Source: Escherichia phage T4
Reading direction: 5' to 3' (one strand)
DNA: 64,000 nucleotides
Sequence record: OL964745.1
Shown: one piece after another, positions 3,159 through 58,634 of the stretch
Layout of the letters: every line of letters starts with the position of its first letter
How positions within the stretch are numbered: the stretch's first letter is position 1
The notes under the pieces: model-generated
What the model was told of the DNA's origin: nothing
The model's input: the letters and a program-made list of their open reading frames with translations, nothing else
Databases searched by the model: none
Position numbers and translations under genes: made by a program

Positions 3159-3940
3159 CTATAAAACGCTACGAATAGGCCCAAACATATCCATAAGCAA
3201 TTTTGCTTTTTCCAGATTGCACTTTTTAATATTAGACATGCATCCTTTAACGGATACAGCTGCGTCTTTAATTCTAGGAAATACTCGTAATAATTTTCCA
3301 GTAGTATCATATTGAAATACTGGCACATTTCTTTTCTGAGTTATCCCACGTAGATTTAGACATTTTTTGTTTAGTTGCATTAGACATCCTAGAGGGCTTT
3401 CCTATGTTATCAGAATAATATTTCCATTGAAATCCTCCAGCGGTTTTCCTTTTACCATCTACACATTGTTTAATTGAAGTTGAACAGCTATGACATATCT
3501 TCTGCAGCATCTGTAATACATCTATATTTGCGAATAAAATTTCCATTTAAATCATATTGATAAATTGGTTTTCCAGCATTTCGTCTAGCGTTAGACATGT
3601 ATTTATTATCATCTTTCCAGAACTCTTTCATGCTTTCCGATATTGAAGAAGATACAGCTGTTTTAATCCATCCATACATTATTATTTAGTCTTGTTCCGT
3701 CAGAACTATAACATCATACGAATAGCTAAAGCCAATTTAGGAAGTCTATAAATTTTAAATAATAAATGCGCGGTAAAATGTTCTTCTGGTGTCAAAAGAA
3801 CTAAATTAGTTTTATCATCTGTACCACCCATACATCTAGGAATTATATGATGTGTTTCAGTATAGTATGTCAAAAGACTTTTATCATTGCCTCTGTTTAG
3901 TCCTTTTTCGATCAGTAAATTATATGTTTAAATAATTCAT
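3159..3940 (-). pseudogene. HNH homing-endonuclease-like gene with IENR/NUMOD-type DNA-binding repeats, split over at least four frames
   Basis: MNYLNI-stop, then HNH motif ETHHIIPRCMGGTDDKTNLVLLTPEEHFTAH in another frame, then three overlapping ORFs (3488-3679, 3307-3546, 3159-3380) each carrying VxQYDxxGxLIxxFxSIxDAA / GKRKTAGGFQWKY modules. Confidence 0.5.
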
Positions 3941-3974
3941 TTTAGTTTATTTTACCAAAAAATTTATAAAGCAA

Positions 3975-3994
3975 TAGGAGCCGAAGCTCCTATC
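3975..3994 (-). terminator. UUCG-tetraloop hairpin
   Basis: Forward ATAGGAGCCGAAGCTCCTAT. Confidence 0.35.
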
Positions 3995-6081: not shown

Positions 6082-6097
6082 AAGGGCCGAAGCCCTT
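6082..6097 (-). terminator. UUCG-tetraloop hairpin
   Basis: Forward AAGGGCCGAAGCCCTT, U-rich on minus strand. Confidence 0.4.
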
Positions 6098-8028: not shown

Positions 8029-8822
8029 AGTGAATAACTGTCCGTTACGAGCATTCCCCGTTTATATGAAACAATGTAATTTGGATAATTGTCATCTAAA
8101 CACAAATCTTTAATACGACTTGGGTGGAGTTTTAAATCTTTAGCAGCATCCACAAATGATTTATAGATATTGTCATTTATTTTAACATATTCTGGGACGG
8201 GATGAATTGTTATTTTTATATCTATAACATTTGGATGATTACTAACCTGTTCTTCAGAGCATTTAAGAAATTTTGCAGCTGATTTAAAACTTCTAAATTT
8301 ATTTCCGGATTTTAAAGCTATAGAAACAGTCTTTTTAGCCGTTCTACTACCAATATTATTTTTAACATGAGCTTCACTTCTACTATTATTTTTATAATGC
8401 TCAATCAATTTCTCTCGTATCTTATCTTTATGTTTTAAAGATAAGATTTTACCTTTATGGGCATTACTAAGTTTTTGCTTATGTTCTTCTGAATCCGGAT
8501 ATTTGTTAAATTTATATCCACCTATAGATTTATTAAGAATAAATTCGTTATTAAAATATTTCCTAATAAGCATTTCTTCATGTTTAAGGGCCGATTCATA
8601 AGAATCAAAAACTTGAAGAATTATCCACTTAGCTTTATAATCTTTAAGCTTTTCTTTAACAAGCTTAGATGACGAATTGTATTCTTTCCAATTTGTATCT
8701 TTACCATATATAGTTTTGAATTTTTTAAAACCTATATAAAAAGACTTATCAGGAAATCTTACCATATAGGTAAATGCTACAGAATTGGCAATTTTTAAGC
8801 TTTTTCTTAATTTCCATTTCAT
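8025..8822 (-). CDS. Intron-encoded GIY-YIG homing endonuclease (I-TevII-like)
   Basis: 265-aa ORF with GIY-YIG-like FTYMVRFPDKSFYIGFKKF, NUMOD-like HKQKLSNAHKGK and IENR-like KSFVDAAKDL; directly follows a group I intron core. Confidence 0.7.
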   Translation of the reverse strand: MKWKLRKSLKIANSVAFTYMVRFPDKSFYIGFKKFKTIYGKDTNWKEYNSSSKLVKEKLKDYKAKWIILQVFDSYESALKHEEMLIRKYFNNEFILNKSIGGYKFNKYPDSEEHKQKLSNAHKGKILSLKHKDKIREKLIEHYKNNSRSEAHVKNNIGSRTAKKTVSIALKSGNKFRSFKSAAKFLKCSEEQVSNHPNVIDIKITIHPVPEYVKINDNIYKSFVDAAKDLKLHPSRIKDLCLDDNYPNYIVSYKRGMLVTDSYSL

Positions 8823-12499: not shown

Positions 12500-12900
12500 T
12501 TCACGAAGGCTAATTACGAGTTTATATCCTTCCCAACCGCATATTCTTAAAAGGATATGTATGAATTTCTACTGTTTCCATACAAAGTAATGCGGTCTCT
12601 AATTGACGAGTTAGTGCTAGCAATTGAGAAAAATTTATTAATATTCTTTTGGTTAGTTTCTGGTGTAAAAAATCCATAATTCACAAATAGATACTTTATT
12701 TTTATCAAGTTCATATTCTTTTATGATAATCATATCAGAAGCCAAAGGATGAATTTGACGATAATCGCCAACATAATTTAGAAGCTGATTTTAGAATTTG
12801 CTTCTTGAAAAGTCTGAAATTACTAATCCAACGACGAGTAAAAATATTCTCAGGGTCTTCTTTATTATTGAGATGATAAGAATTAACATCACCGAACCAA

Positions 12901-13155
12901 TTATCCTACTACATCTTTAGTTCGTTTAATTTCTTTCCCAAAATTACCAAGAATATCCCGATTAACCAAATATGAAAGAAGACGAGACTCTTTAAAGGTT
13001 TTCTTGATAACATCTTTATCTACACGGCTAGAAATTTTACGAATTTCATGAATAAATTTAGTAGAAGAAACAATACTTGCATCAACACTATTGAGCCACT
13101 GATTGATAATAGAAAGAACGCTATTTTGGCCAAACATCGGTATAGCTATCATCAA
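12901..13155 (-). CDS. Hypothetical protein
   Basis: 84-aa ORF. Confidence 0.3.
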   Translation of the reverse strand: MMIAIPMFGQNSVLSIINQWLNSVDASIVSSTKFIHEIRKISSRVDKDVIKKTFKESRLLSYLVNRDILGNFGKEIKRTKDVVG

Positions 13156-13250
13156 TAACGCTATTGAATGATTTGATATTCGTTACGAGTCATATTAATC
13201 TCCTCAGTAGAAAGTAAGAACATTATACCACATCCTTGTGGCAAAGTAAA

Positions 13251-29394: not shown

Positions 29395-30054
29395 TTAAAA
29401 TTTCATTTTTCGACCTTTAAACCATCCTTCTGGAATTGGGTCAGTTTTCTTAATACGTTTAGAAACTTTTTCATCTAATGAATGAATCCACATCATACCG
29501 AATTGGGAATTCTTTTCACCTTTCTGGTGATTATTTTTGGCGTGAGATTCTTTCATTTTATTAATAGTTTCAGGAGTATGATGCTTATTTAGATCTGCTA
29601 TTATTTAAAAATTTTTCCCTGTATTCAGGAGTTGACCACAAACGTTTAAATACATTTGAACCAATTTTACGATATTTTTCTTGAAGTAAAATATCATTTT
29701 CAAAACGTGACTTAAACGATAGCTCCTTTTAAGCTAGCATCTTTCTTCTGGTTTAGCATTCCAGGAATATTTACATGATCCCATCCACCTTCACCGCCAA
29801 GTTTTAAATTATACACATCTGGTCTATTTAAAAACTCTTCTGTGACAATATTTTTCTCGGCTTCAAGCATAGATTCTTTATCGTCAAAATACTCTAATAT
29901 TTCTTTAGAAAAATTTTCTATACCATATTTATCTTGGGCTCTTTTTAATAATTTACCAGAACCCATATCCATCATCTAAATTTTCGGTAGAATGCACACC
30001 AATATAAATTTTATTATTAATTTTATTTGTTATTTTATAAGTGTAATAGAACAT
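29395..30054 (-). pseudogene. segB: GIY-YIG homing endonuclease (segB-like) split over four frames
   Basis: MFYYTYKITNKINNKIYIGVHSTENLDDGY-stop; MGSGKLLKRAQDKYGIENF (ORF 29712-29975); IGSNVFKRLWSTPEYREKF; NUMOD-like HTPETINKMKESHAK...PIPEGWFKGRKMKF; every junction a +1 shift. Confidence 0.55.
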
Positions 30055-34189: not shown

Positions 34190-35014
34190 TTAGATATTTG
34201 ACCAGACTTTGTTTGCAGAGAAACGTTTTCCTTTTGAAACGAACTGCTGAAGTGGCATCAACACAACGTTCGCCCAGTCTTTCGGGGCGATTTCAACAAG
34301 GCTACCCATAATATTACCAGGTATATATGCCTTAATCATTTGGTCTGCACCCCTAAATCCTTTCACTTGACTCCAATCAATTTTTAATTTCGTTTTATTA
34401 GTAATAGTAGGTGTATTTGCATATTGCTTTAAAAGCTCTTCTAGGAATTGCTGACGAGCTTTAGGTGGAATATAGTGCAAGTTTAATCCGTACATTAAAT
34501 TATGCTTACCTAAACCAAGGTAAATTATCAAAGGAAATTTATCCCAGTAAGGAAGAGTTTCCTTGTGTTTAGCATCATAAGCAAAAGCATATATTCGTCC
34601 CGGCTGCGGGCGAACAACTTTATGTCCTTTTACTTGCTTAATAGTTTCAGCAAACCACTTTCTGGTTTTATTATTAATTGCTGCGCCTTCATTACGAATT
34701 TTATCACGCAATGTTTGTCTGAATGAATTTATCATAAGCAGTTGTCTTTCTTGCTTATTGAGTTTATTCATTGGTTTTGATTCAAGTTTTTGAATCTTTT
34801 CAGCCGTTTTAATTCCTGAAGCATATTTTGACATTGCTGAAGTAAACGTAGAGTATTTGATTCCTCTTTCTTCAGCAAATTGCTTTCCTGTCATTCCTTT
34901 TGCTTTGGCCTTTTTATATTCAAGACCTATCTGAATCCATTTCTTTTCGTTTAATGATTGCTTAACCTTTGGAACTTGGGGAGTGCTTTCATTAATTATT
35001 TGAAAAATAGCCAT
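34190..35014 (-). CDS. 2: DNA end-protector protein gp2
   Basis: 274-aa ORF, T4 gp2 length and position. Confidence 0.75.
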
Positions 35015-37849: not shown

Positions 37850-38365
37850 ATGGAAGGTTCTTCTATCGACGTCACCTTTACCGCTCAATTAGAAACAGGT
37901 GAAACGTTAGTATCTATAAATATAACTAGTTACGAAGAAACTCCTGGGGTTTTAGTAGAAGAAAATCGCTTATATGGAACATATGAATCTGTATTTGGTT
38001 TCGGAAATGACGCGTTGAAATATCGTTTAGGCGATGAATTTAAAACTGCTGCTTCATGGGAAGAACTTCCTACTGATTCTGATACTCAGTTGTATTTGTG
38101 GAAAGCTCCTCAAAACCTCCAGAAGACATTCACTTACGAAGTAACATTAATATATGACTACCAAGAACAAAGTGAATCTGGGGGTTCTGGCAGTAATTCT
38201 AGGTCATCTTCTGATACTACTGAACCGACAGATCCTCCTGCTCCAGTAAGAAAAACTCTAGTTAAAAATTATACTAAAACTATAGTTGGAAATTGGAGTC
38301 GTTGGGCTAATAAACTGAGAAAATGCCTATGCAAGACCATAAATATTTTTATTTGTATTCAATAA
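37850..38365 (+). CDS. 5.1: Hypothetical protein gp5.1
   Basis: Start at ATG 37850 with GGAG SD; the track ORF start at 37787 overlaps gp5. Confidence 0.5.
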   Translation: MEGSSIDVTFTAQLETGETLVSINITSYEETPGVLVEENRLYGTYESVFGFGNDALKYRLGDEFKTAASWEELPTDSDTQLYLWKAPQNLQKTFTYEVTLIYDYQEQSESGGSGSNSRSSSDTTEPTDPPAPVRKTLVKNYTKTIVGNWSRWANKLRKCLCKTINIFICIQ

Positions 38366-38910
38366 CTAATAAAACAACAGAAAAAATTTATGTAGGCGTC
38401 CACAAAACTTCAAATTTGGATGATGGGTATGGGTTCTGGCGTTGCCATTAAAAATGCCATTAAAATATGGCATAGATAATTTTTATAAGCATATTATAAA
38501 ATTCTTTGAATCTGAAAAAGCTATATGACGCAGAGGCAGAAATAGTCACAGAGGAATTTGTTAAATCTAAGAAAACTTATAATATGAAACTAGGCGGTAT
38601 CGGTGGCTTCCCAAAACATAACACAGCGGGTGCTAAAAATGGATTTTACGGTAAATCTCATTCGCGTGAAACTAGATTGAAAATTAGCATTAAATCGTCT
38701 AGAAAAAGAGGGCCTAGAGGGCCTAGAGGTAAAACTCTGAAGATGTGTGGCGCCAATAACCCAAGGTATGGCAAAATAGCCCCTAATGCTAAATCTGTTA
38801 TCAACGGCGTTTTATATAAAAGTATTAAAATCGCAGCTAAAGCTCTTAATATAAATTATAGTACCTTAAAGGGGCGAGTTAAAGCGGGGTATTATAAATG
38901 CCAGGATTAA
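38329..38910 (+). pseudogene. segC: GIY-YIG homing endonuclease (segC-like) split by three +1 frame shifts
   Basis: MQDHKYFYLYSITNKTTEKIYVGVHKTSNLDDGY (frame 1), MGSGVAIKNAIK (frame 2), KYGIDNFYKHIIKFFESEKAI (frame 3), then 134-aa ORF 38506-38910 in frame 1. Confidence 0.55.
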
Positions 38911-41182: not shown

Positions 41183-44100
41183 CAGTAAAAGCACCTTCAG
41201 TCACTAGTCTCAGAATTTCCAAGTTATCCGCAAATCAGGTGCAAGTACGCTGGGATGACGTTGGTGCTAATTTCTACAAAATAGTAGAAATCGCTGAGAC
41301 AAAAACAAACTCGGGGGAAAATCTCCCGAGTAATCAATATCGTTGGATTAATTTAGGATATACAGCAAATAATAGTTTCTTTTTTGATGATGCTGATCCA
41401 TTAACAACATACATTATTAGAGTAGCCACAGCTGCGCAAGATTTTGAGCAGTCTGATTGGATTTATACCGAAGAGTTTGAAACTTTTGCTACAAATGCTT
41501 ATACATTTCAAAACATGATTGAAATGCAATTAGCCAATAAATTCATTCAGGAAAAATTTACTCTTAATAATTCTGATTATGTTAATTTTAATAATGATAC
41601 TATAATGGCTGCATTGATGAATGAATCATTCCAATTCAGCCCATCGTATGTTGATGTTTCATCAATAAGTAATTTTATTATTGGTGAAAATGAGTATCAT
41701 GAAATACAAGGTTCTATTCAGCAAGTATGTAAGGATATTAACCGAGTTTATTTGATGGAATCAGAAGGAATTCTATATCTTTTTGAGCGCTATCAACCTG
41801 TAGTTAAAGTATCCAATGATAAAGGACAAACCTGGAAAGCTGTAAAGCTCTTCAATGACCGTGTAGGATATCCTTTATCTAAGACAGTATATTACCAATC
41901 TGCGAACACAACATACGTTCTAGGATACGACAAGATTTTCTATGGCCGCAAATCTACTGATGTTAGATGGTCAGCCGATGATGTCAGATTTAGTTCTCAG
42001 GATATAACATTTGCTAAACTTGGCGACCAATTACATCTAGGATTTGATGTAGAAATTTTTGCCACTTACGCGACTTTACCAGCGAATGTATACCGCATTG
42101 CAGAAGCTATTACTTGCACCGATGATTACATTTACGTTGTCGCCAGAGACAAAGTTAGATACATAAAAACGAGTAATGCACCTATAGATTCTGATCCATT
42201 ATCTCCAACATATTCGGAAAGACTTTTTGAACCTGATACCATGACTATAACCGGAAATCCTAAAGCAGTATGCTATAAAATGGATTCTATCTGTGATAAA
42301 GTTTTTGCTCTTATTATTGGTGAAGTTGAAACATTAAATGCTAATCCTAGAACATCAAAAATAATTGATTCCACTGATAAAGGAATATATGTTTTAAATC
42401 ATGACGAAAAAACATGGAAAAGAGTTTTTGGTAATACCGAAGAAGAAAGAAGACGTATTCAACCCGGATATGCGAATATGTCAACTGACGGTAAATTAGT
42501 TTCTCTGTCTTCGAGTAATTTTAAATTTTTAAGTGATAATGTTGTTAATGACCCTGAAACTGCAGCAAAATATCAGTTAATTGGCGCTGTTAAATATGAA
42601 TTTCCTCGTGAATGGTTAGCTGATAAGCATTATCATATGATGGCATTTATAGCGGATGAAACATCTGATTGGGAGACTTTTACTCCTCAACCAATGAAAT
42701 ACTACGCAGAACCATTCTTTAACTGGTCTAAAAAATCTAACACACGTTGTTGGATAAACAACTCTGATAGAGCTGTGGTAGTTTATGCTGATTTAAAATA
42801 CACTAAAGTTATAGAAAATATTCCGGAAACATCACCAGATAGATTAGTTCATGAATACTGGGATGATGGTGATTGCACTATAGTAATGCCAAATGTCAAA
42901 TTCACTGGATTTAAAAAATACGCATCAGGAATGCTTTTCTATAAAGCCTCCGGTGAAATAATTTCTTACTATGATTTTAACTATCGTGTGAGAGATACAG
43001 TAGAAATTATTTGGAAGCCAACTGAAGTATTTTTAAAAGCATTTTTACAAAACCAAGAGCATGAGACTCCTTGGTCACCAGAAGAAGAGCGTGGATTAGC
43101 TGACCCTGATTTAAGACCATTAATTGGCACAATGATGCCTGATTCTTATTTGTTACAGGATTCGAATTTTGAGGCATTTTGCGAAGCATATATTCAGTAT
43201 CTTTCTGATGGATATGGAACTCAATACAATAATTTACGAAATTTAATTCGTAACCAATATCCACGAGAAGAGCACGCATGGGAATATTTGTGGTCAGAGA
43301 TATATAAAAGAAACATTTATTTAAATGCTGATAAACGCGATGCTGTTGCGAGATTCTTTGAATCACGTAGCTATGATTTTTATTCTACTAAAGGAATTGA
43401 AGCATCATACAAGTTTCTTTTTAAAGTTCTTTATAATGAAGAAGTTGAAATTGAAATTGAATCTGGGGCTGGTACTGAATATGATATAATCGTTCAATCT
43501 GATTCTTTGACTGAAGATTTAGTAGGACAAACGATTTATACGGCAACAGGAAGATGTAATGTTACTTATATAGAAAGAAGCTATTCTAATGGTAAATTGC
43601 AATGGACCGTAACTATTCATAATCTTTTGGGACGATTAATTGCTGGTCAAGAAGTTAAAGCAGAAAGACTCCCTAGTTTTGAAGGCGAAATTATTCGTGG
43701 GGTTAAAGGAAAGGATTTGCTTCAAAACAATATAGACTATATTAATAGAAGTAGATCATACTATGTAATGAAAATTAAATCCAATTTACCTTCTTCCCGC
43801 TGGAAATCTGACGTTATTCGTTTTGTTCATCCAGTAGGATTTGGATTTATAGCAATTACCCTTTTAACAATGTTTATTAATGTTGGTTTAACTCTTAAAC
43901 ATACAGAGACTATAATTAATAAATACAAAAACTATAAATGGGATTCTGGATTGCCTACTGAATATGCCGACAGAATAGCTAAATTAACTCCAACCGGTGA
44001 AATTGAGCATGATTCAGTAACAGGCGAAGCAATTTATGAGCCTGGCCCAATGGCTGATGTAAAATATCCTCTTCCTGATGACTATAATGCTGAAAATAAT

Positions 44101-44277
44101 AATTCAATATTTCAAGGTCAATTGCCGTCTGAACGACGTAAATTAATGAGTCCTTTATTTGATGCATCTGGAACAACATTTGCGCAATTTAGAGATTTAG
44201 TTAATAAACGTCTAAAAGATAATATAGGAAATCCAAGAGACCCTGAAAATCCAACACAGGTTAAAATAGATGAATGA
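41179..44277 (+). CDS. 7: Baseplate wedge protein gp7
   Basis: 1032-aa ORF, T4 gp7 length; ATGA overlap with gp6. Confidence 0.9.
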   Translation: MTVKAPSVTSLRISKLSANQVQVRWDDVGANFYKIVEIAETKTNSGENLPSNQYRWINLGYTANNSFFFDDADPLTTYIIRVATAAQDFEQSDWIYTEEFETFATNAYTFQNMIEMQLANKFIQEKFTLNNSDYVNFNNDTIMAALMNESFQFSPSYVDVSSISNFIIGENEYHEIQGSIQQVCKDINRVYLMESEGILYLFERYQPVVKVSNDKGQTWKAVKLFNDRVGYPLSKTVYYQSANTTYVLGYDKIFYGRKSTDVRWSADDVRFSSQDITFAKLGDQLHLGFDVEIFATYATLPANVYRIAEAITCTDDYIYVVARDKVRYIKTSNAPIDSDPLSPTYSERLFEPDTMTITGNPKAVCYKMDSICDKVFALIIGEVETLNANPRTSKIIDSTDKGIYVLNHDEKTWKRVFGNTEEERRRIQPGYANMSTDGKLVSLSSSNFKFLSDNVVNDPETAAKYQLIGAVKYEFPREWLADKHYHMMAFIADETSDWETFTPQPMKYYAEPFFNWSKKSNTRCWINNSDRAVVVYADLKYTKVIENIPETSPDRLVHEYWDDGDCTIVMPNVKFTGFKKYASGMLFYKASGEIISYYDFNYRVRDTVEIIWKPTEVFLKAFLQNQEHETPWSPEEERGLADPDLRPLIGTMMPDSYLLQDSNFEAFCEAYIQYLSDGYGTQYNNLRNLIRNQYPREEHAWEYLWSEIYKRNIYLNADKRDAVARFFESRSYDFYSTKGIEASYKFLFKVLYNEEVEIEIESGAGTEYDIIVQSDSLTEDLVGQTIYTATGRCNVTYIERSYSNGKLQWTVTIHNLLGRLIAGQEVKAERLPSFEGEIIRGVKGKDLLQNNIDYINRSRSYYVMKIKSNLPSSRWKSDVIRFVHPVGFGFIAITLLTMFINVGLTLKHTETIINKYKNYKWDSGLPTEYADRIAKLTPTGEIEHDSVTGEAIYEPGPMADVKYPLPDDYNAENNNSIFQGQLPSERRKLMSPLFDASGTTFAQFRDLVNKRLKDNIGNPRDPENPTQVKIDE

Positions 44278-45274
44278 TTCAAGTGTTATCTATCGTGCGA
44301 TAGTTACTTCAAAATTTAGAACAGAAAAAATGTTGAATTTTTATAATTCAATTGGAAGTGGTCCGGATAAAAACACTATCTTTATCACATTTGGAAGATC
44401 AGAACCGTGGTCATCAAATGAAAATGAGGTGGGCTTTGCCCCACCTTATCCAACCGATTCTGTATTAGGCGTAACTGACATGTGGACGCATATGATGGGA
44501 ACAGTAAAAGTTCTTCCATCAATGCTTGATGCTGTTATTCCTCGCAGAGATTGGGGAGATACTAGATATCCGGATCCATACACATTTAGAATTAACGATA
44601 TTGTAGTGTGTAACTCAGCTCCTTACAACGCTACTGAATCAGGCGCTGGTTGGTTAGTGTATCGTTGTTTAGATGTTCCTGATACCGGAATGTGTTCAAT
44701 AGCATCTTTAACTGATAAAGATGAATGCCTTAAGTTAGGTGGAAAATGGACTCCTTCTGCTAGGTCAATGACTCCGCCTGAAGGTCGAGGAGATGCTGAA
44801 GGAACAATTGAACCCGGAGACGGGTATGTGTGGGAATATCTATTTGAGATTCCGCCTGATGTATCTATAAATAGATGCACGAATGAATATATCGTGGTTC
44901 CTTGGCCTGAGGAATTAAAAGAAGACCCGACTAGATGGGGATATGAAGATAATCTCACTTGGCAACAAGATGATTTTGGATTAATTTACCGTGTTAAGGC
45001 AAATACTATCCGTTTTAAAGCATATTTAGATTCAGTTTATTTTCCTGAAGCTGCATTGCCAGGAAATAAAGGATTTAGACAAATATCAATAATCACGAAT
45101 CCTCTTGAAGCTAAAGCTCATCCAAATGACCCAAACGTTAAAGCTGAAAAGGATTATTATGACCCAGAAGATTTAATGAGGCATTCGGGTGAAATGATTT
45201 ATATGGAAAATAGGCCACCTATTATTATGGCAATGGATCAAACAGAAGAAATCAATATTCTGTTTACATTTTAA
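44270..45274 (+). CDS. 8: Baseplate wedge protein gp8
   Basis: 334-aa ORF. Confidence 0.9.
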   Translation: MNDSSVIYRAIVTSKFRTEKMLNFYNSIGSGPDKNTIFITFGRSEPWSSNENEVGFAPPYPTDSVLGVTDMWTHMMGTVKVLPSMLDAVIPRRDWGDTRYPDPYTFRINDIVVCNSAPYNATESGAGWLVYRCLDVPDTGMCSIASLTDKDECLKLGGKWTPSARSMTPPEGRGDAEGTIEPGDGYVWEYLFEIPPDVSINRCTNEYIVVPWPEELKEDPTRWGYEDNLTWQQDDFGLIYRVKANTIRFKAYLDSVYFPEAALPGNKGFRQISIITNPLEAKAHPNDPNVKAEKDYYDPEDLMRHSGEMIYMENRPPIIMAMDQTEEINILFTF

Positions 45275-45279
45275 ATTAA

Positions 45280-45305
45280 GGGAGCCCATGGGCTCCCTTT
45301 TTCTT
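45280..45305 (+). terminator. Rho-independent terminator between genes 8 and 9
   Basis: Perfect palindrome GGGAGCCCATGGGCTCCC followed by TTTTTCTTT. Confidence 0.6.
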
Positions 45306-45313
45306 TATAAATA
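45306..45313 (+). promoter_or_regulatory. Late promoter upstream of gene 9
   Basis: Exact TATAAATA about 25 nt before the gp9 start. Confidence 0.6.
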
Positions 45314-45337
45314 CTATAAACTCATAAGGAAACCGCT

Positions 45338-46204
45338 ATGTTCATTCAAGAACCAAAGAAATTGATTGATACCGGCGAAATTGGTAACGCTTCTACTGGT
45401 GATATCTTATTCGACGGTGGTAATAAAATTAATAGTGATTTTAACGCAATTTATAATGCGTTTGGCGATCAGCGTAAAATGGCAGTAGCAAATGGCACTG
45501 GAGCAGATGGTCAAATTATCCATGCTACTGGATATTATCAAAAACACTCTATTACAGAGTACGCAACTCCAGTGAAAGTTGGCACTAGACATGATATTGA
45601 TACCTCTACTGTAGGTGTTAAAGTTATCATTGAAAGAGGCGAACTCGGCGATTGTGTTGAATTCATTAACTCTAATGGATCAATATCAGTTACTAATCCT
45701 TTGACAATTCAAGCTATTGATTCAATTAAAGGTGTTTCAGGTAATTTAGTAGTAACTAGCCCATATAGTAAAGTTACTTTACGCTGTATTTCATCTGATA
45801 ATTCTACGTCGGTTTGGAATTATTCTATTGAAAGTATGTTTGGACAAAAGGAATCACCAGCTGAAGGTACATGGAATATTTCTACATCTGGATCAGTTGA
45901 CATTCCATTATTTCATCGTACTGAATACAATATGGCTAAATTGCTAGTTACGTGCCAATCGGTAGATGGAAGAAAAATTAAAACAGCAGAAATAAATATT
46001 CTTGTGGATACTGTTAATTCAGAGGTAATTTCTTCTGAATATGCTGTCATGCGAGTTGGGAATGAAACCGAAGAAGACGAAATCGCTAATATTGCATTTA
46101 GTATTAAAGAAAATTATGTAACGGCGACTATAAGTTCTTCAACTGTCGGTATGAGAGCAGCAGTTAAAGTTATCGCTACGCAGAAAATCGGGGTGGCTCA
46201 ATAA
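45338..46204 (+). CDS. 9: Baseplate wedge protein gp9 (long tail fibre socket)
   Basis: 288-aa ORF. Confidence 0.9.
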   Translation: MFIQEPKKLIDTGEIGNASTGDILFDGGNKINSDFNAIYNAFGDQRKMAVANGTGADGQIIHATGYYQKHSITEYATPVKVGTRHDIDTSTVGVKVIIERGELGDCVEFINSNGSISVTNPLTIQAIDSIKGVSGNLVVTSPYSKVTLRCISSDNSTSVWNYSIESMFGQKESPAEGTWNISTSGSVDIPLFHRTEYNMAKLLVTCQSVDGRKIKTAEINILVDTVNSEVISSEYAVMRVGNETEEDEIANIAFSIKENYVTATISSSTVGMRAAVKVIATQKIGVAQ

Positions 46205-53485: not shown

Positions 53486-56626
<3,141 letters not shown>

Positions 56627-56654
56627 TATTAAAGCATATTAAAGAGGATTAAAA

Positions 56655-58634
56655 ATGACTTTATTATCTCCGGGCATTGAGCTCAAAGAAACTACGGTTC
56701 AAAGCACCGTAGTTAATAACTCTACTGGTACAGCAGCTTTGGCCGGTAAATTCCAGTGGGGTCCTGCTTTTCAGATTAAACAGGTTACAAATGAAGTAGA
56801 TTTAGTTAATACTTTTGGTCAACCAACCGCTGAAACTGCTGACTATTTTATGTCTGCGATGAATTTCTTGCAGTACGGAAATGACTTACGAGTAGTTCGT
56901 GCTGTTGATAGAGATACCGCTAAAAACTCATCGCCAATTGCTGGTAATATTGAATACACAATTTCTACCCCAGGTAGTAGCTATGCGGTTGGAGATAAAA
57001 TCACGGTCAAATATGTTTCAGATGATATTGAAACTGAAGGTAAAATTACTGAAGTAGACGCAGATGGAAAAATTAAGAAAATTAATATTCCTACTGCAAA
57101 AATTATCGCTAAAGCGAAAGAAGTCGGTGAATATCCAACACTAGGTTCTAACTGGACTGCGGAAATTTCTTCATCTTCCTCTGGTTTAGCTGCAGTAATA
57201 ACTCTTGGAAAAATTATTACTGATTCTGGTATTTTATTAGCTGAAATTGAAAATGCTGAAGCTGCTATGACAGCGGTTGACTTTCAAGCAAATCTTAAAA
57301 AATATGGAATTCCAGGAGTAGTAGCGCTTTATCCAGGCGAATTAGGCGATAAAATTGAAATTGAAATCGTATCTAAAGCTGACTATGCAAAAGGAGCTTC
57401 TGCATTACTCCCAATTTATCCAGGTGGTGGTACTCGTGCATCTACTGCTAAAGCAGTGTTTGGATATGGACCGCAAACTGATTCACAGTACGCTATTATA
57501 GTTCGTCGTAATGATGCTATTGTTCAAAGCGTTGTTCTTTCAACTAAGCGTGGTGAAAAAGATATTTACGATAGTAACATCTATATCGATGACTTTTTCG
57601 CAAAAGGTGGTTCAGAATATATTTTTGCAACTGCACAAAACTGGCCAGAAGGCTTCTCTGGAATTTTAACTCTGTCTGGTGGATTATCATCAAATGCTGA
57701 AGTAACAGCAGGAGATTTGATGGAAGCTTGGGACTTCTTTGCTGACCGTGAATCTGTTGACGTTCAACTGTTTATTGCAGGTTCTTGTGCCGGTGAATCT
57801 TTAGAAACAGCATCTACTGTCCAAAAACACGTCGTTTCAATTGGGGATGCTCGCCAAAATTGCTTAGTATTGTGCTCTCCTCCGCGTGAAACTGTAGTTG
57901 GAATTCCTGTAACCCGTGCTGTTGATAACTTAGTCAATTGGAGAACTGCGGCAGGTTCATACACTGATAATAACTTTAATATCAGTTCAACCTATGCAGC
58001 AATTGATGGTAACTATAAGTATCAGTATGACAAATATAATGATGTGAATCGTTGGGTTCCATTAGCAGCTGATATTGCTGGTTTATGCGCAAGAACTGAT
58101 AACGTATCTCAGACTTGGATGTCTCCAGCTGGTTATAATCGTGGTCAGATTCTTAACGTTATTAAACTTGCTATTGAAACTCGCCAGGCTCAGCGCGACC
58201 GTTTATACCAAGAAGCTATCAACCCGGTAACCGGTACAGGTGGTGATGGTTACGTATTGTATGGTGATAAAACAGCTACTTCTGTTCCTTCTCCATTTGA
58301 TCGTATTAACGTTCGTCGTCTGTTTAATATGTTGAAAACGAATATCGGACGTAGTTCAAAATATCGTTTGTTCGAATTAAACAACGCGTTTACTCGTTCA
58401 TCATTCCGCACAGAAACTGCCCAGTACTTACAGGGAATTAAAGCTCTCGGTGGAATTTATGAATATCGTGTAGTTTGCGATACAACAAATAACACTCCGT
58501 CAGTAATTGATAGAAATGAGTTTGTTGCAACATTCTACATCCAACCGGCTAGAAGCATTAACTACATTACCTTAAACTTCGTAGCAACTGCTACTGGTGC
58601 AGATTTCGATGAGTTAACTGGTCTTGCTGGTTAA
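56655..58634 (+). CDS. 18: Tail sheath protein gp18
   Basis: 659-aa ORF. Confidence 0.95.
   Translation: MTLLSPGIELKETTVQSTVVNNSTGTAALAGKFQWGPAFQIKQVTNEVDLVNTFGQPTAETADYFMSAMNFLQYGNDLRVVRAVDRDTAKNSSPIAGNIEYTISTPGSSYAVGDKITVKYVSDDIETEGKITEVDADGKIKKINIPTAKIIAKAKEVGEYPTLGSNWTAEISSSSSGLAAVITLGKIITDSGILLAEIENAEAAMTAVDFQANLKKYGIPGVVALYPGELGDKIEIEIVSKADYAKGASALLPIYPGGGTRASTAKAVFGYGPQTDSQYAIIVRRNDAIVQSVVLSTKRGEKDIYDSNIYIDDFFAKGGSEYIFATAQNWPEGFSGILTLSGGLSSNAEVTAGDLMEAWDFFADRESVDVQLFIAGSCAGESLETASTVQKHVVSIGDARQNCLVLCSPPRETVVGIPVTRAVDNLVNWRTAAGSYTDNNFNISSTYAAIDGNYKYQYDKYNDVNRWVPLAADIAGLCARTDNVSQTWMSPAGYNRGQILNVIKLAIETRQAQRDRLYQEAINPVTGTGGDGYVLYGDKTATSVPSPFDRINVRRLFNMLKTNIGRSSKYRLFELNNAFTRSSFRTETAQYLQGIKALGGIYEYRVVCDTTNNTPSVIDRNEFVATFYIQPARSINYITLNFVATATGADFDELTGLAG

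Follow-up and report, generated by a model that had tools for sequence, protein, structure and literature searches.

The question raised by this locus is why two paralogous GIY-YIG endonuclease genes of phage T4, segC and segB, should break at the same motif and with the same offset within the 64,000-nucleotide stretch of DNA analyzed here (the window). When the sequence is read again, both sites indeed carry DDGY, one extra base, and then GSG, and translation of the downstream +1 frame gives MGSG in both genes, as an earlier note on this DNA had described. That note had both upstream frames end in DDGYGFW followed by a stop, which is exact for segB but three residues short for segC. The sites and their upstream open reading frames are the following.

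38419-38439, plus strand: segC site, reading GATGATGGGTATGGGTTCTGG
29956-29976, minus strand: segB site, whose reverse complement reads GATGATGGATATGGGTTCTGG
38323-38451, plus strand: segC upstream open reading frame, 42 amino acids, ending in DDGYGFWRCH and a stop
29953-30054, minus strand: segB upstream open reading frame, 33 amino acids, ending in DDGYGFW and a stop

According to our analysis, the two lesions are, with high confidence, 2-bp deletions acquired by a laboratory T4 of the lineage evolved by CRISPR/Cas9 iterative phage genome reduction (CiPGr; PMC9825161), and their parallelism comes from shared local sequence, not from a function of the site. The genes themselves are readily recognized, since their loci are 98 to 99% identical to phage T4 and every difference is a small gap: segC lies between 5.1 and 5.4 (gp5 and 5.1 upstream, 5.4 and gp6 downstream), and segB lies within the tRNA cluster. 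In Pfam, wild-type SegB matches PF01541 with 28.3 bits (cut-off 22.6) and wild-type SegC matches PF19835 with 27.9 bits (cut-off 25). The N-terminal fragments encoded in the window score only 16.8 to 18.4 bits for GIY-YIG, which is under the cut-off, and NUMOD3 is found in the 134-amino-acid C-terminal open reading frame of segC.

The nature of the lesions follows from a three-way alignment of NC_000866, the mutant T4 clone T4_583L, and the window. Wild-type T4 reads GGGTATATGGGTTCTGG at the segC site and GGATATATGGGTTCTGG at the segB site, both encoding an uninterrupted DDGYMGSG, and the intact form at either site contains TATATGGG. Relative to this form, both lesions are a 2-bp deletion that converts GGxTATATGGG into GGxTATGGG, and not a 1-base insertion; one TA/AT unit is gone at each site, in the window and in T4_583L alike.

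38428-38430, plus strand: segC focal lesion, TAT left of the wild-type TATAT, with TA lost in the Tyr-Met codons of DDGYMGSG
29965-29968, minus strand: segB focal lesion, ATAT left of the wild-type ATATAT, with 2 bp lost in the Tyr-Met codons of DDGYMGSG

The codons at this point are nearly alike in wild-type segB and segC (TAT ATG GGT TCT GG), and as a consequence each gene has a short (TA)n tract with GG dinucleotides after it. Pfam places the motif inside the GIY-YIG catalytic domain, of whose catalytic motif the Y-M-G of DDGYMGSG is the "YIG" half.

One of the explanations offered in the earlier note was a conserved site of programmed +1 frameshifting or attenuation limiting endonuclease expression, and it had proposed a comparison of orthologs, taking a continuous codon string at the motif as evidence against its reading. 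Such a string is what we find: reference T4 and all other T4-like records matched carry DDGYMGSG as continuous codons within a full-length stretch, and in IMG/VR the intact motif GATGATGGNTATATGGGTTCTGG is present in 62 contigs and the deleted motif GATGATGGNTATGGGTTCTGG in none. Programmed +1 ribosomal frameshifting is known from examples such as prfB, with the T4 gene 60 bypass named alongside, and the likeness to the seg genes is limited to the superficial picture of a frame-0 stop with a +1 continuation. The identical arrangement of the two paralogs in this window is all that speaks for recoding; it is not conserved, it is unneeded in the wild type, and a single shift does not yield the full protein. 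The last point became clear when the whole of both genes was aligned and translated.

38323-38910, plus strand: segC, in four frame segments (5.3 is fused to it, as modern T4 sequences also show)
About 38428, about 38462, and about 38524, plus strand: 2-bp deletions in segC, from alignment and translation
About 38798, plus strand: 3-bp deletion in segC, from alignment
Directly 5' of the ATG at 38323, plus strand (reference 80194-80195): 2-bp deletion of segC private to the window, from alignment
29395-30054, minus strand: segB, in four frame segments, with 2-bp deletions at about 29965, about 29720, and about 29593

The single break per gene described earlier exists but is accompanied by two further 2-bp deletions in each of segB and segC. 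In each gene the reading path passes from frame 0 through +1 and +2, interrupted by stops, before it returns to 0, the three 2-bp deletions together restoring the original frame in the C-terminal part. Translation of the window reveals no intact frame spanning the nuclease and DNA-binding parts in either gene, and both segB and segC are pseudogenes in this clone. Since three frame changes would be needed per gene, a single recoding event could not rescue the protein. With orthologs in frame, the shifted form absent from natural contigs, and a genome that is an engineered mutant, the idea of a conserved site for recoding or attenuation stands refuted, and we regard its probability as practically nil.

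Some further features of the two genes were observed. The C-terminal open reading frames of both are annotated as "homing endonuclease" in T4_583L despite the disrupted catalytic domain. The window-private deletion at 38323 shortens the spacing to the upstream sequence and alters the C terminus of gp5.1; as a counterpart, T4_583L has a private 2-bp deletion in the ribosome-binding region of segB (GGAGATATTT to GGAGATTT, reference 71921). At window position 38722 (reference 80601), NC_000866 is without one C of GGGCCTAGAGG, which separates segC from "5.3". This C is present in the window, in T4_583L, and in all modern T4 records (632-nucleotide matches), so that segC and 5.3 are one open reading frame in real T4, the C-terminal part of which contains NUMOD3 and an I-TevI-like DNA-binding motif.

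Both loci have their nearest record in MZ375356 (151,790 bp; "Mutant Escherichia phage T4 clone T4_583L"), which is the smallest T4 genome obtained by CiPGr (Yuan et al., Nucleic Acids Res 2022, PMC9825161). In that work, T4 underwent up to about 600 serial transfers on E. coli MG1655 harboring a plasmid for SpCas9 and lambda-Red together with a library of guide plasmids, with about eight guides for each non-essential gene and with 50-bp homology arms designed for 100-bp or whole-gene deletions, while structural and known essential genes were left untargeted (PMC9825161). The authors described large undesigned deletions in T4, including nrdG-D, nrdC.11-mobD.3, and vs.3-denV, and reported 1322 undesigned one- or two-base deletions, in T4 populations only, some of which they suggested to be "probably" CRISPR-escape mutations (PMC9825161). 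The focal lesions belong to the same phage and lineage, T4_583L having both of them, and are of the same kind, with the same consequence of premature termination codons, marked "P" in that paper (PMC9825161).

How the window relates to this lineage was established by comparing the whole of it with NC_000866, of which it spans positions 34,714 to 105,882 at 99.5 to 99.8% identity. Besides four larger deletions, we counted about 50 small ones (38 of 2 bp, 11 to 12 of 3 bp, and one of 4 bp), located in mobB (about 10), nrdC.4 (8), nrdC.1, nrdC.2, rI.1, tk.4, nudE, segB, segC, trna.2, trna.3, and a few intergenic sites. The genes affected by small or kilobase-scale deletions are all dispensable, no small deletion was found in the approximately 25 kb of structural genes 6 to 23 or in replication genes, and the genes with small deletions showed no substitutions in this comparison. 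The main features are listed below.

3351-3975, minus strand: mobB, hit more heavily than any other gene of the window (about 10 small deletions over about 0.8 kb)
12541-13177, minus strand: nrdC.4, with eight 2- to 3-bp deletions of the same class as the seg lesions
8057/8058: junction of a 2046-bp deletion (reference 42802-44847) of the nrdG 5' part, mobC, nrdD exon 2, and the end of I-TevII
12154/12155: junction of a 905-bp deletion removing nrdC.3 precisely up to the start codon, identical in T4_583L
17827/17828: junction of a 2046-bp deletion (reference 55554-57599) of nrdC.11, mobD, and part of mobD.1
22996/22997: junction of a 2054-bp deletion (reference 62789-64842) from vs.3 to vs.8

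Together with the precise nrdC.3 deletion, which looks like a designed CiPGr whole-gene deletion, 40 of the 50 small deletions of the window are common to T4_583L, and in the same interval 10 small deletions are private to the window and 21 to T4_583L. Shared and private lesions side by side indicate that the two are sibling lineages, in which lesions were still accruing after divergence. Genome-wide, T4_583L has 112 2-bp and 25 3-bp deletions, distributed as in the window. The large deletions of the window lie exactly in the regions of the large undesigned deletions reported for CiPGr, and its own junctions were not found in any record of the phage collection. From the shared lesions, we infer that the window belongs to a laboratory-evolved, genome-reduced T4 derivative of CiPGr origin and a sibling of T4_583L. 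The seg lesions thus are members of a wider, gene-local deletion class, as the case of mobB shows, and the lesion class is already reported for this lineage, which makes the focal finding an ordinary and already known one. The earlier note was right, in this form, to doubt that the two breaks arose by unrelated natural decay and to see a role for local sequence context; the lesions give no evidence for natural decay or for conversion between paralogs.

Several other differences were noted in the comparison. The deletions at 8057/8058, 17827/17828, and 22996/22997 are of nearly equal size and have 0 to 1 nucleotide of junction homology. Their left edges coincide within a few bases with those of larger deletions in T4_583L (42801 to 46113, 55553 to 58231, and 62804 to 65401), whose junctions show a minihomology of 10 to 20 nucleotides, partly imperfect; these larger deletions may have arisen from deletions of the window type that were extended by a second event, with the old junction as its anchor. 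In gene 7, four T-to-A changes at window positions 41278 to 41283 (reference 83159-83164), common to T4_583L, amount to an inversion of a 6-nucleotide hairpin loop (CTAC-TATTTT-GTAG to CTAC-AAAATA-GTAG), which reflects either variation between strains or a mistake in the old reference. Paired, compensating 1-bp insertions and deletions at 6084/6099, 50036/50039, 57097/57106, and 58433/58438 (55.3, gene 12, and gene 18) look like errors of the 1990s reference rather than mutations of the clone. As for the other GIY-YIG genes of T4_583L, 2- to 3-bp deletions are present in segA (3), segD (1), segE (3, with a small rearranged patch in addition), segF (2), segG (2), and I-TevI (3), and none in the remaining part of I-TevII.

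The sibling comparison also bears on whether the lesions are real. An artefact of sequencing or assembly at TATGGGTTCTGG, or at AT repeats generally, could be suspected (for instance from SOAPdenovo assembly or from reads of modified DNA), since the deletions fall in low-complexity A/T tracts, were reported only for T4, a phage with heavily modified DNA, and were found in clones assembled de novo from short reads (PMC9825161). However, the small deletions were also seen by population read mapping, and the T4_583L clone was stable over 12 transfers (PMC9825161). Moreover, no such deletions occur in the structural and replication genes despite many similar tracts (in gene 7, 0 of 12), and 40 shared and 31 differing deletions between two separately assembled siblings are what inherited mutations predict. 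An artefact is therefore improbable in our view: of the context artefact proposed earlier, the role of sequence context holds, while a purely technical origin is unlikely for lesions that siblings share and that are confined to dispensable genes.

What this context consists of was derived from 151 distinct deletions of 2 to 4 bp, pooled from the window and T4_583L. One unit of a tandem repeat of at least two units was lost in 86 of them (random expectation, 21 ± 4), and 122 lie in an A/T-only tract (random, 58 ± 6), the tracts most commonly deleted being TATA, ATAT, TATAT, and ATATAT. The fraction of alternating-AT tracts deleted rises with length, from 1.4% at 4 nucleotides to 4.4%, 11%, and 24% at 5, 6, and 7 nucleotides. 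Among tracts of at least 5 nucleotides, 11 of 18 in hit genes had a 2-bp deletion, compared with 0 of 24 in other dispensable genes (P = 7e-6); the hot tracts of e.2 to e.8 were hit in 0 of 12 cases although this block is deletable. segC contains one such tract, in the Tyr-Met codons, and segB contains two. With about 60% of the tracts lost in hit genes and a single one available in segC, the coincidence needs no special explanation, and since segB and segC are both hit genes, finding the homologous motif deleted in the two is close to what would be expected. Breakage at the motif is not inevitable: segA and segD carry GGTTATATGGG (segD, the full TATATGGGTTCTGG) and keep it undamaged in T4_583L, though both have 2-bp deletions elsewhere.

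Gene conversion, by which the lesion would have been copied between the segB and segC paralogs, was the remaining proposal of the earlier note. The 14 bases around the lesion (TATATGGGTTCTGG) are identical in both copies, but both flanks are paralog specific (GGG versus GGA, TTTGG versus TTTAG, and CGTT versus TAAA), and any conversion tract would consequently have been at most 14 nucleotides long. segD, with the same 14-mer, was not converted, and about 150 equivalent deletions occur at sites without a paralog. With each gene keeping its own flanks and so many deletions at non-homologous sites, conversion is both unnecessary and unsupported, and we consider it very improbable.

Frameshifts by replication slippage at short tandem repeats, of the Streisinger type, were first defined in T4, and the classical T4 hot spots are changes of ±1 in A/T runs, genome-wide. 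The deletions described here likewise lose exactly one repeat unit and increase in rate with tract length. In contrast to the classical hot spots, -2 dominates, -1 is rare, and the events are confined to particular targeted genes. The most frequent size is -2 bp (112 deletions in T4_583L), followed by -3 bp (25), and genuine -1 events are few, a spectrum unlike the classical T4 ±1 pattern in A/T runs; the deleted tracts are almost always A/T-only and have the same base on either side (ATA, TAT, TTT, AAA, TGT, and ACA).

Some general causes can be set aside. A global mutator combined with relaxed selection is rejected, since the gp43 DNA polymerase is unchanged in T4_583L and the hot tracts of other dispensable genes were spared. 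Selection for gene inactivation is rejected because there are many hits per gene and 3-bp in-frame deletions as well, and it is excluded by new hits in genes already broken: of the 31 younger, lineage-private deletions, 17 are of this kind (P = 0.001). Errors in chip-synthesized homology arms appear not to be the cause either, as the arms would flank the genes, judging from the whole-gene deletions in T4_583L, and synthesis errors would not be (AT)n specific.

The role of Cas9 is the more delicate question. We enumerated the NGG protospacers of wild-type T4 as candidate SpCas9 targets, of which those at the two sites are listed here.

38409-38439, plus strand: candidate SpCas9 targets in wild-type segC, AAATTTGGATGATGGGTATA (PAM TGG), AATTTGGATGATGGGTATAT (PAM GGG), and GATGATGGGTATATGGGTTC (PAM TGG)
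29956-29986, minus strand: homologous candidate SpCas9 targets in segB, AAATTTAGATGATGGATATA (PAM TGG), AATTTAGATGATGGATATAT (PAM GGG), and GATGATGGATATATGGGTTC (PAM TGG)

The focal lesions are located in the PAM or seed of canonical NGG candidate targets: in each gene the tract lies within the seed of three of them, and the predicted cut of two falls inside the tract, these being in segC the first two, which would cut inside TATAT. In the third candidate target, GATGATGGNTATATGGGTTC with PAM TGG, segB and segC differ at one position, 12 nucleotides from the PAM. At both sites a direct repeat of at least 3 nucleotides is present, in the form of overlapping repeats, with one copy kept (TAT in segC, ATAT in segB).

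T4 is known to rejoin Cas9 breaks through minihomologies of 3 to 13 nucleotides in a UvsX-dependent manner, yielding escape deletions of 17 bp to about 18 kb in which the whole protospacer is gone (Wu et al., mBio 2021, PMC8262927). The seg lesions resemble these in that a dispensable T4 gene is affected and a short direct repeat is reduced to a single copy; in the published cases the repeat flanks the Cas9 cut, which is a candidate one here, and the same deletion recurs in independent events (PMC8262927). The kilobase-scale deletions of T4_583L, with junction homologies of 4 to 20 nucleotides, are also of this minihomology type, whereas those of the window differ from it by their 0 to 1 nucleotide of homology, and the seg lesions differ in losing only 2 bp across repeats that are 3 to 4 nucleotides long and overlapping.

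The following sequence of events is inferred for the focal sites, as regards both the molecular route and the part played by Cas9. One TA unit would have been lost from each tract in this T4 lineage, misaligned re-pairing across the 3- to 4-nucleotide repeat giving the product observed, with TAT or ATAT retained once; the route could be slippage, or the smallest version of UvsX-dependent minihomology rejoining of a Cas9 break. In each gene, the deletion would leave three candidate guides with a 2-nucleotide bulge in their seed, and one candidate guide could cross-target both paralogs. The parallelism then comes from segB and segC having the same local sequence and both being targeted. Direct escape from Cas9 at the two focal sites is the reading that we favor, tentatively and on candidate guides only, as something approaching an even chance. 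It has to be set against published T4 escape deletions that begin at 17 bp and not at 2 bp, and against segA and segD, which share the motif and are unhit there in T4_583L.

Beyond the focal sites, the small deletions as a class follow the candidate targets poorly. They coincide with predicted NGG cut sites in 12 of 51 cases, which is chance (10.7 ± 2.9). No protospacer enrichment was detected for deleted AT tracts (51%, compared with 67% of nearby intact tracts) or over all 151 deletions (62%, compared with a background of 72%), and 57 of the 151 (38%) lie outside every NGG protospacer; NAG PAMs are uninformative because their background is already 98%. In the absence of class-wide enrichment, Cas9 escape cannot be the general cause, and scars of Cas9 cut sites are likewise ruled out in that role by chance overlap and the lack of context-matched enrichment. 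Only two subsets look target linked. Of 18 deletions without microhomology, 10 lie within 6 nucleotides of a PAM, and three loci (reference about 48615, about 50399, and about 60927) have a candidate protospacer whose seed or PAM was altered by one deletion in the window and by another in T4_583L; one of these deletions takes out the TGG PAM itself. We conclude that the small deletions have two overlapping sources, namely, true escape lesions and a larger set for which slippage in the repeated break repair of targeted genes would be the best account.

Should the focal lesions belong to the second source, they would be collateral and unselected, resulting from a locally raised rate of deletion in the A/T-only tracts of genes that undergo repeated cutting and repair, by way of misaligned invading or extending 3' ends in recombination-dependent repair synthesis, and the motif would have been hit as the most slippage-prone tract in each gene. 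This is a real possibility, though we would not call it probable. It agrees with the lack of protospacer enrichment and the deletions outside any NGG protospacer, with the strong, length-dependent repeat and A/T signature, with the gene-local distribution and continued hits in already broken genes, and with the unchanged gp43, which argues against a global mutator. On the other hand, the focal tracts lie exactly at candidate cut sites, selection on targets is indicated by the three loci at which a candidate seed or PAM was hit independently by different deletions, and the hit genes are without accompanying substitutions, which is unusual for generally error-prone synthesis. It also counts against unselected slippage that we know of no direct evidence for such hypermutation in T4.

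A broader proposal, which we deem rather unlikely, is that most of the small deletions are not escape mutations but mark a gene-local mutational process in Cas9-passaged T4. Repeated cutting and recombinational repair would raise the rate of -2/-3-bp deletions by orders of magnitude in A/T-only tracts as far as hundreds of bases away from the cut, almost without substitutions or -1 events, the seg lesions being two instances. Its signature, a -2-bp peak with a flank of the TNT/ANA type and only in DNA free of glucosyl-hydroxymethylcytosine, would then represent a break-repair mutagenesis specific to the T4 replication-recombination machinery. The A/T-only and (AT)n context, the -2-bp peak, the gene-local clustering, and the lack of protospacer enrichment are absent from the original report (PMC9825161) and were found here.

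The two focal sites contribute nothing new on the regulation of the seg genes. They do illustrate that parallel lesions in engineered or evolved genomes deposited in public databases can mimic conserved recoding signals, for which reason the comparison with the wild type must come first. The wider pattern, in which deletions are gene local and repeat specific without being concentrated in protospacers, is relevant to the repair of Cas9 breaks by T4 and to the question of how intact the neighboring sequence is left by Cas9-based phage engineering.
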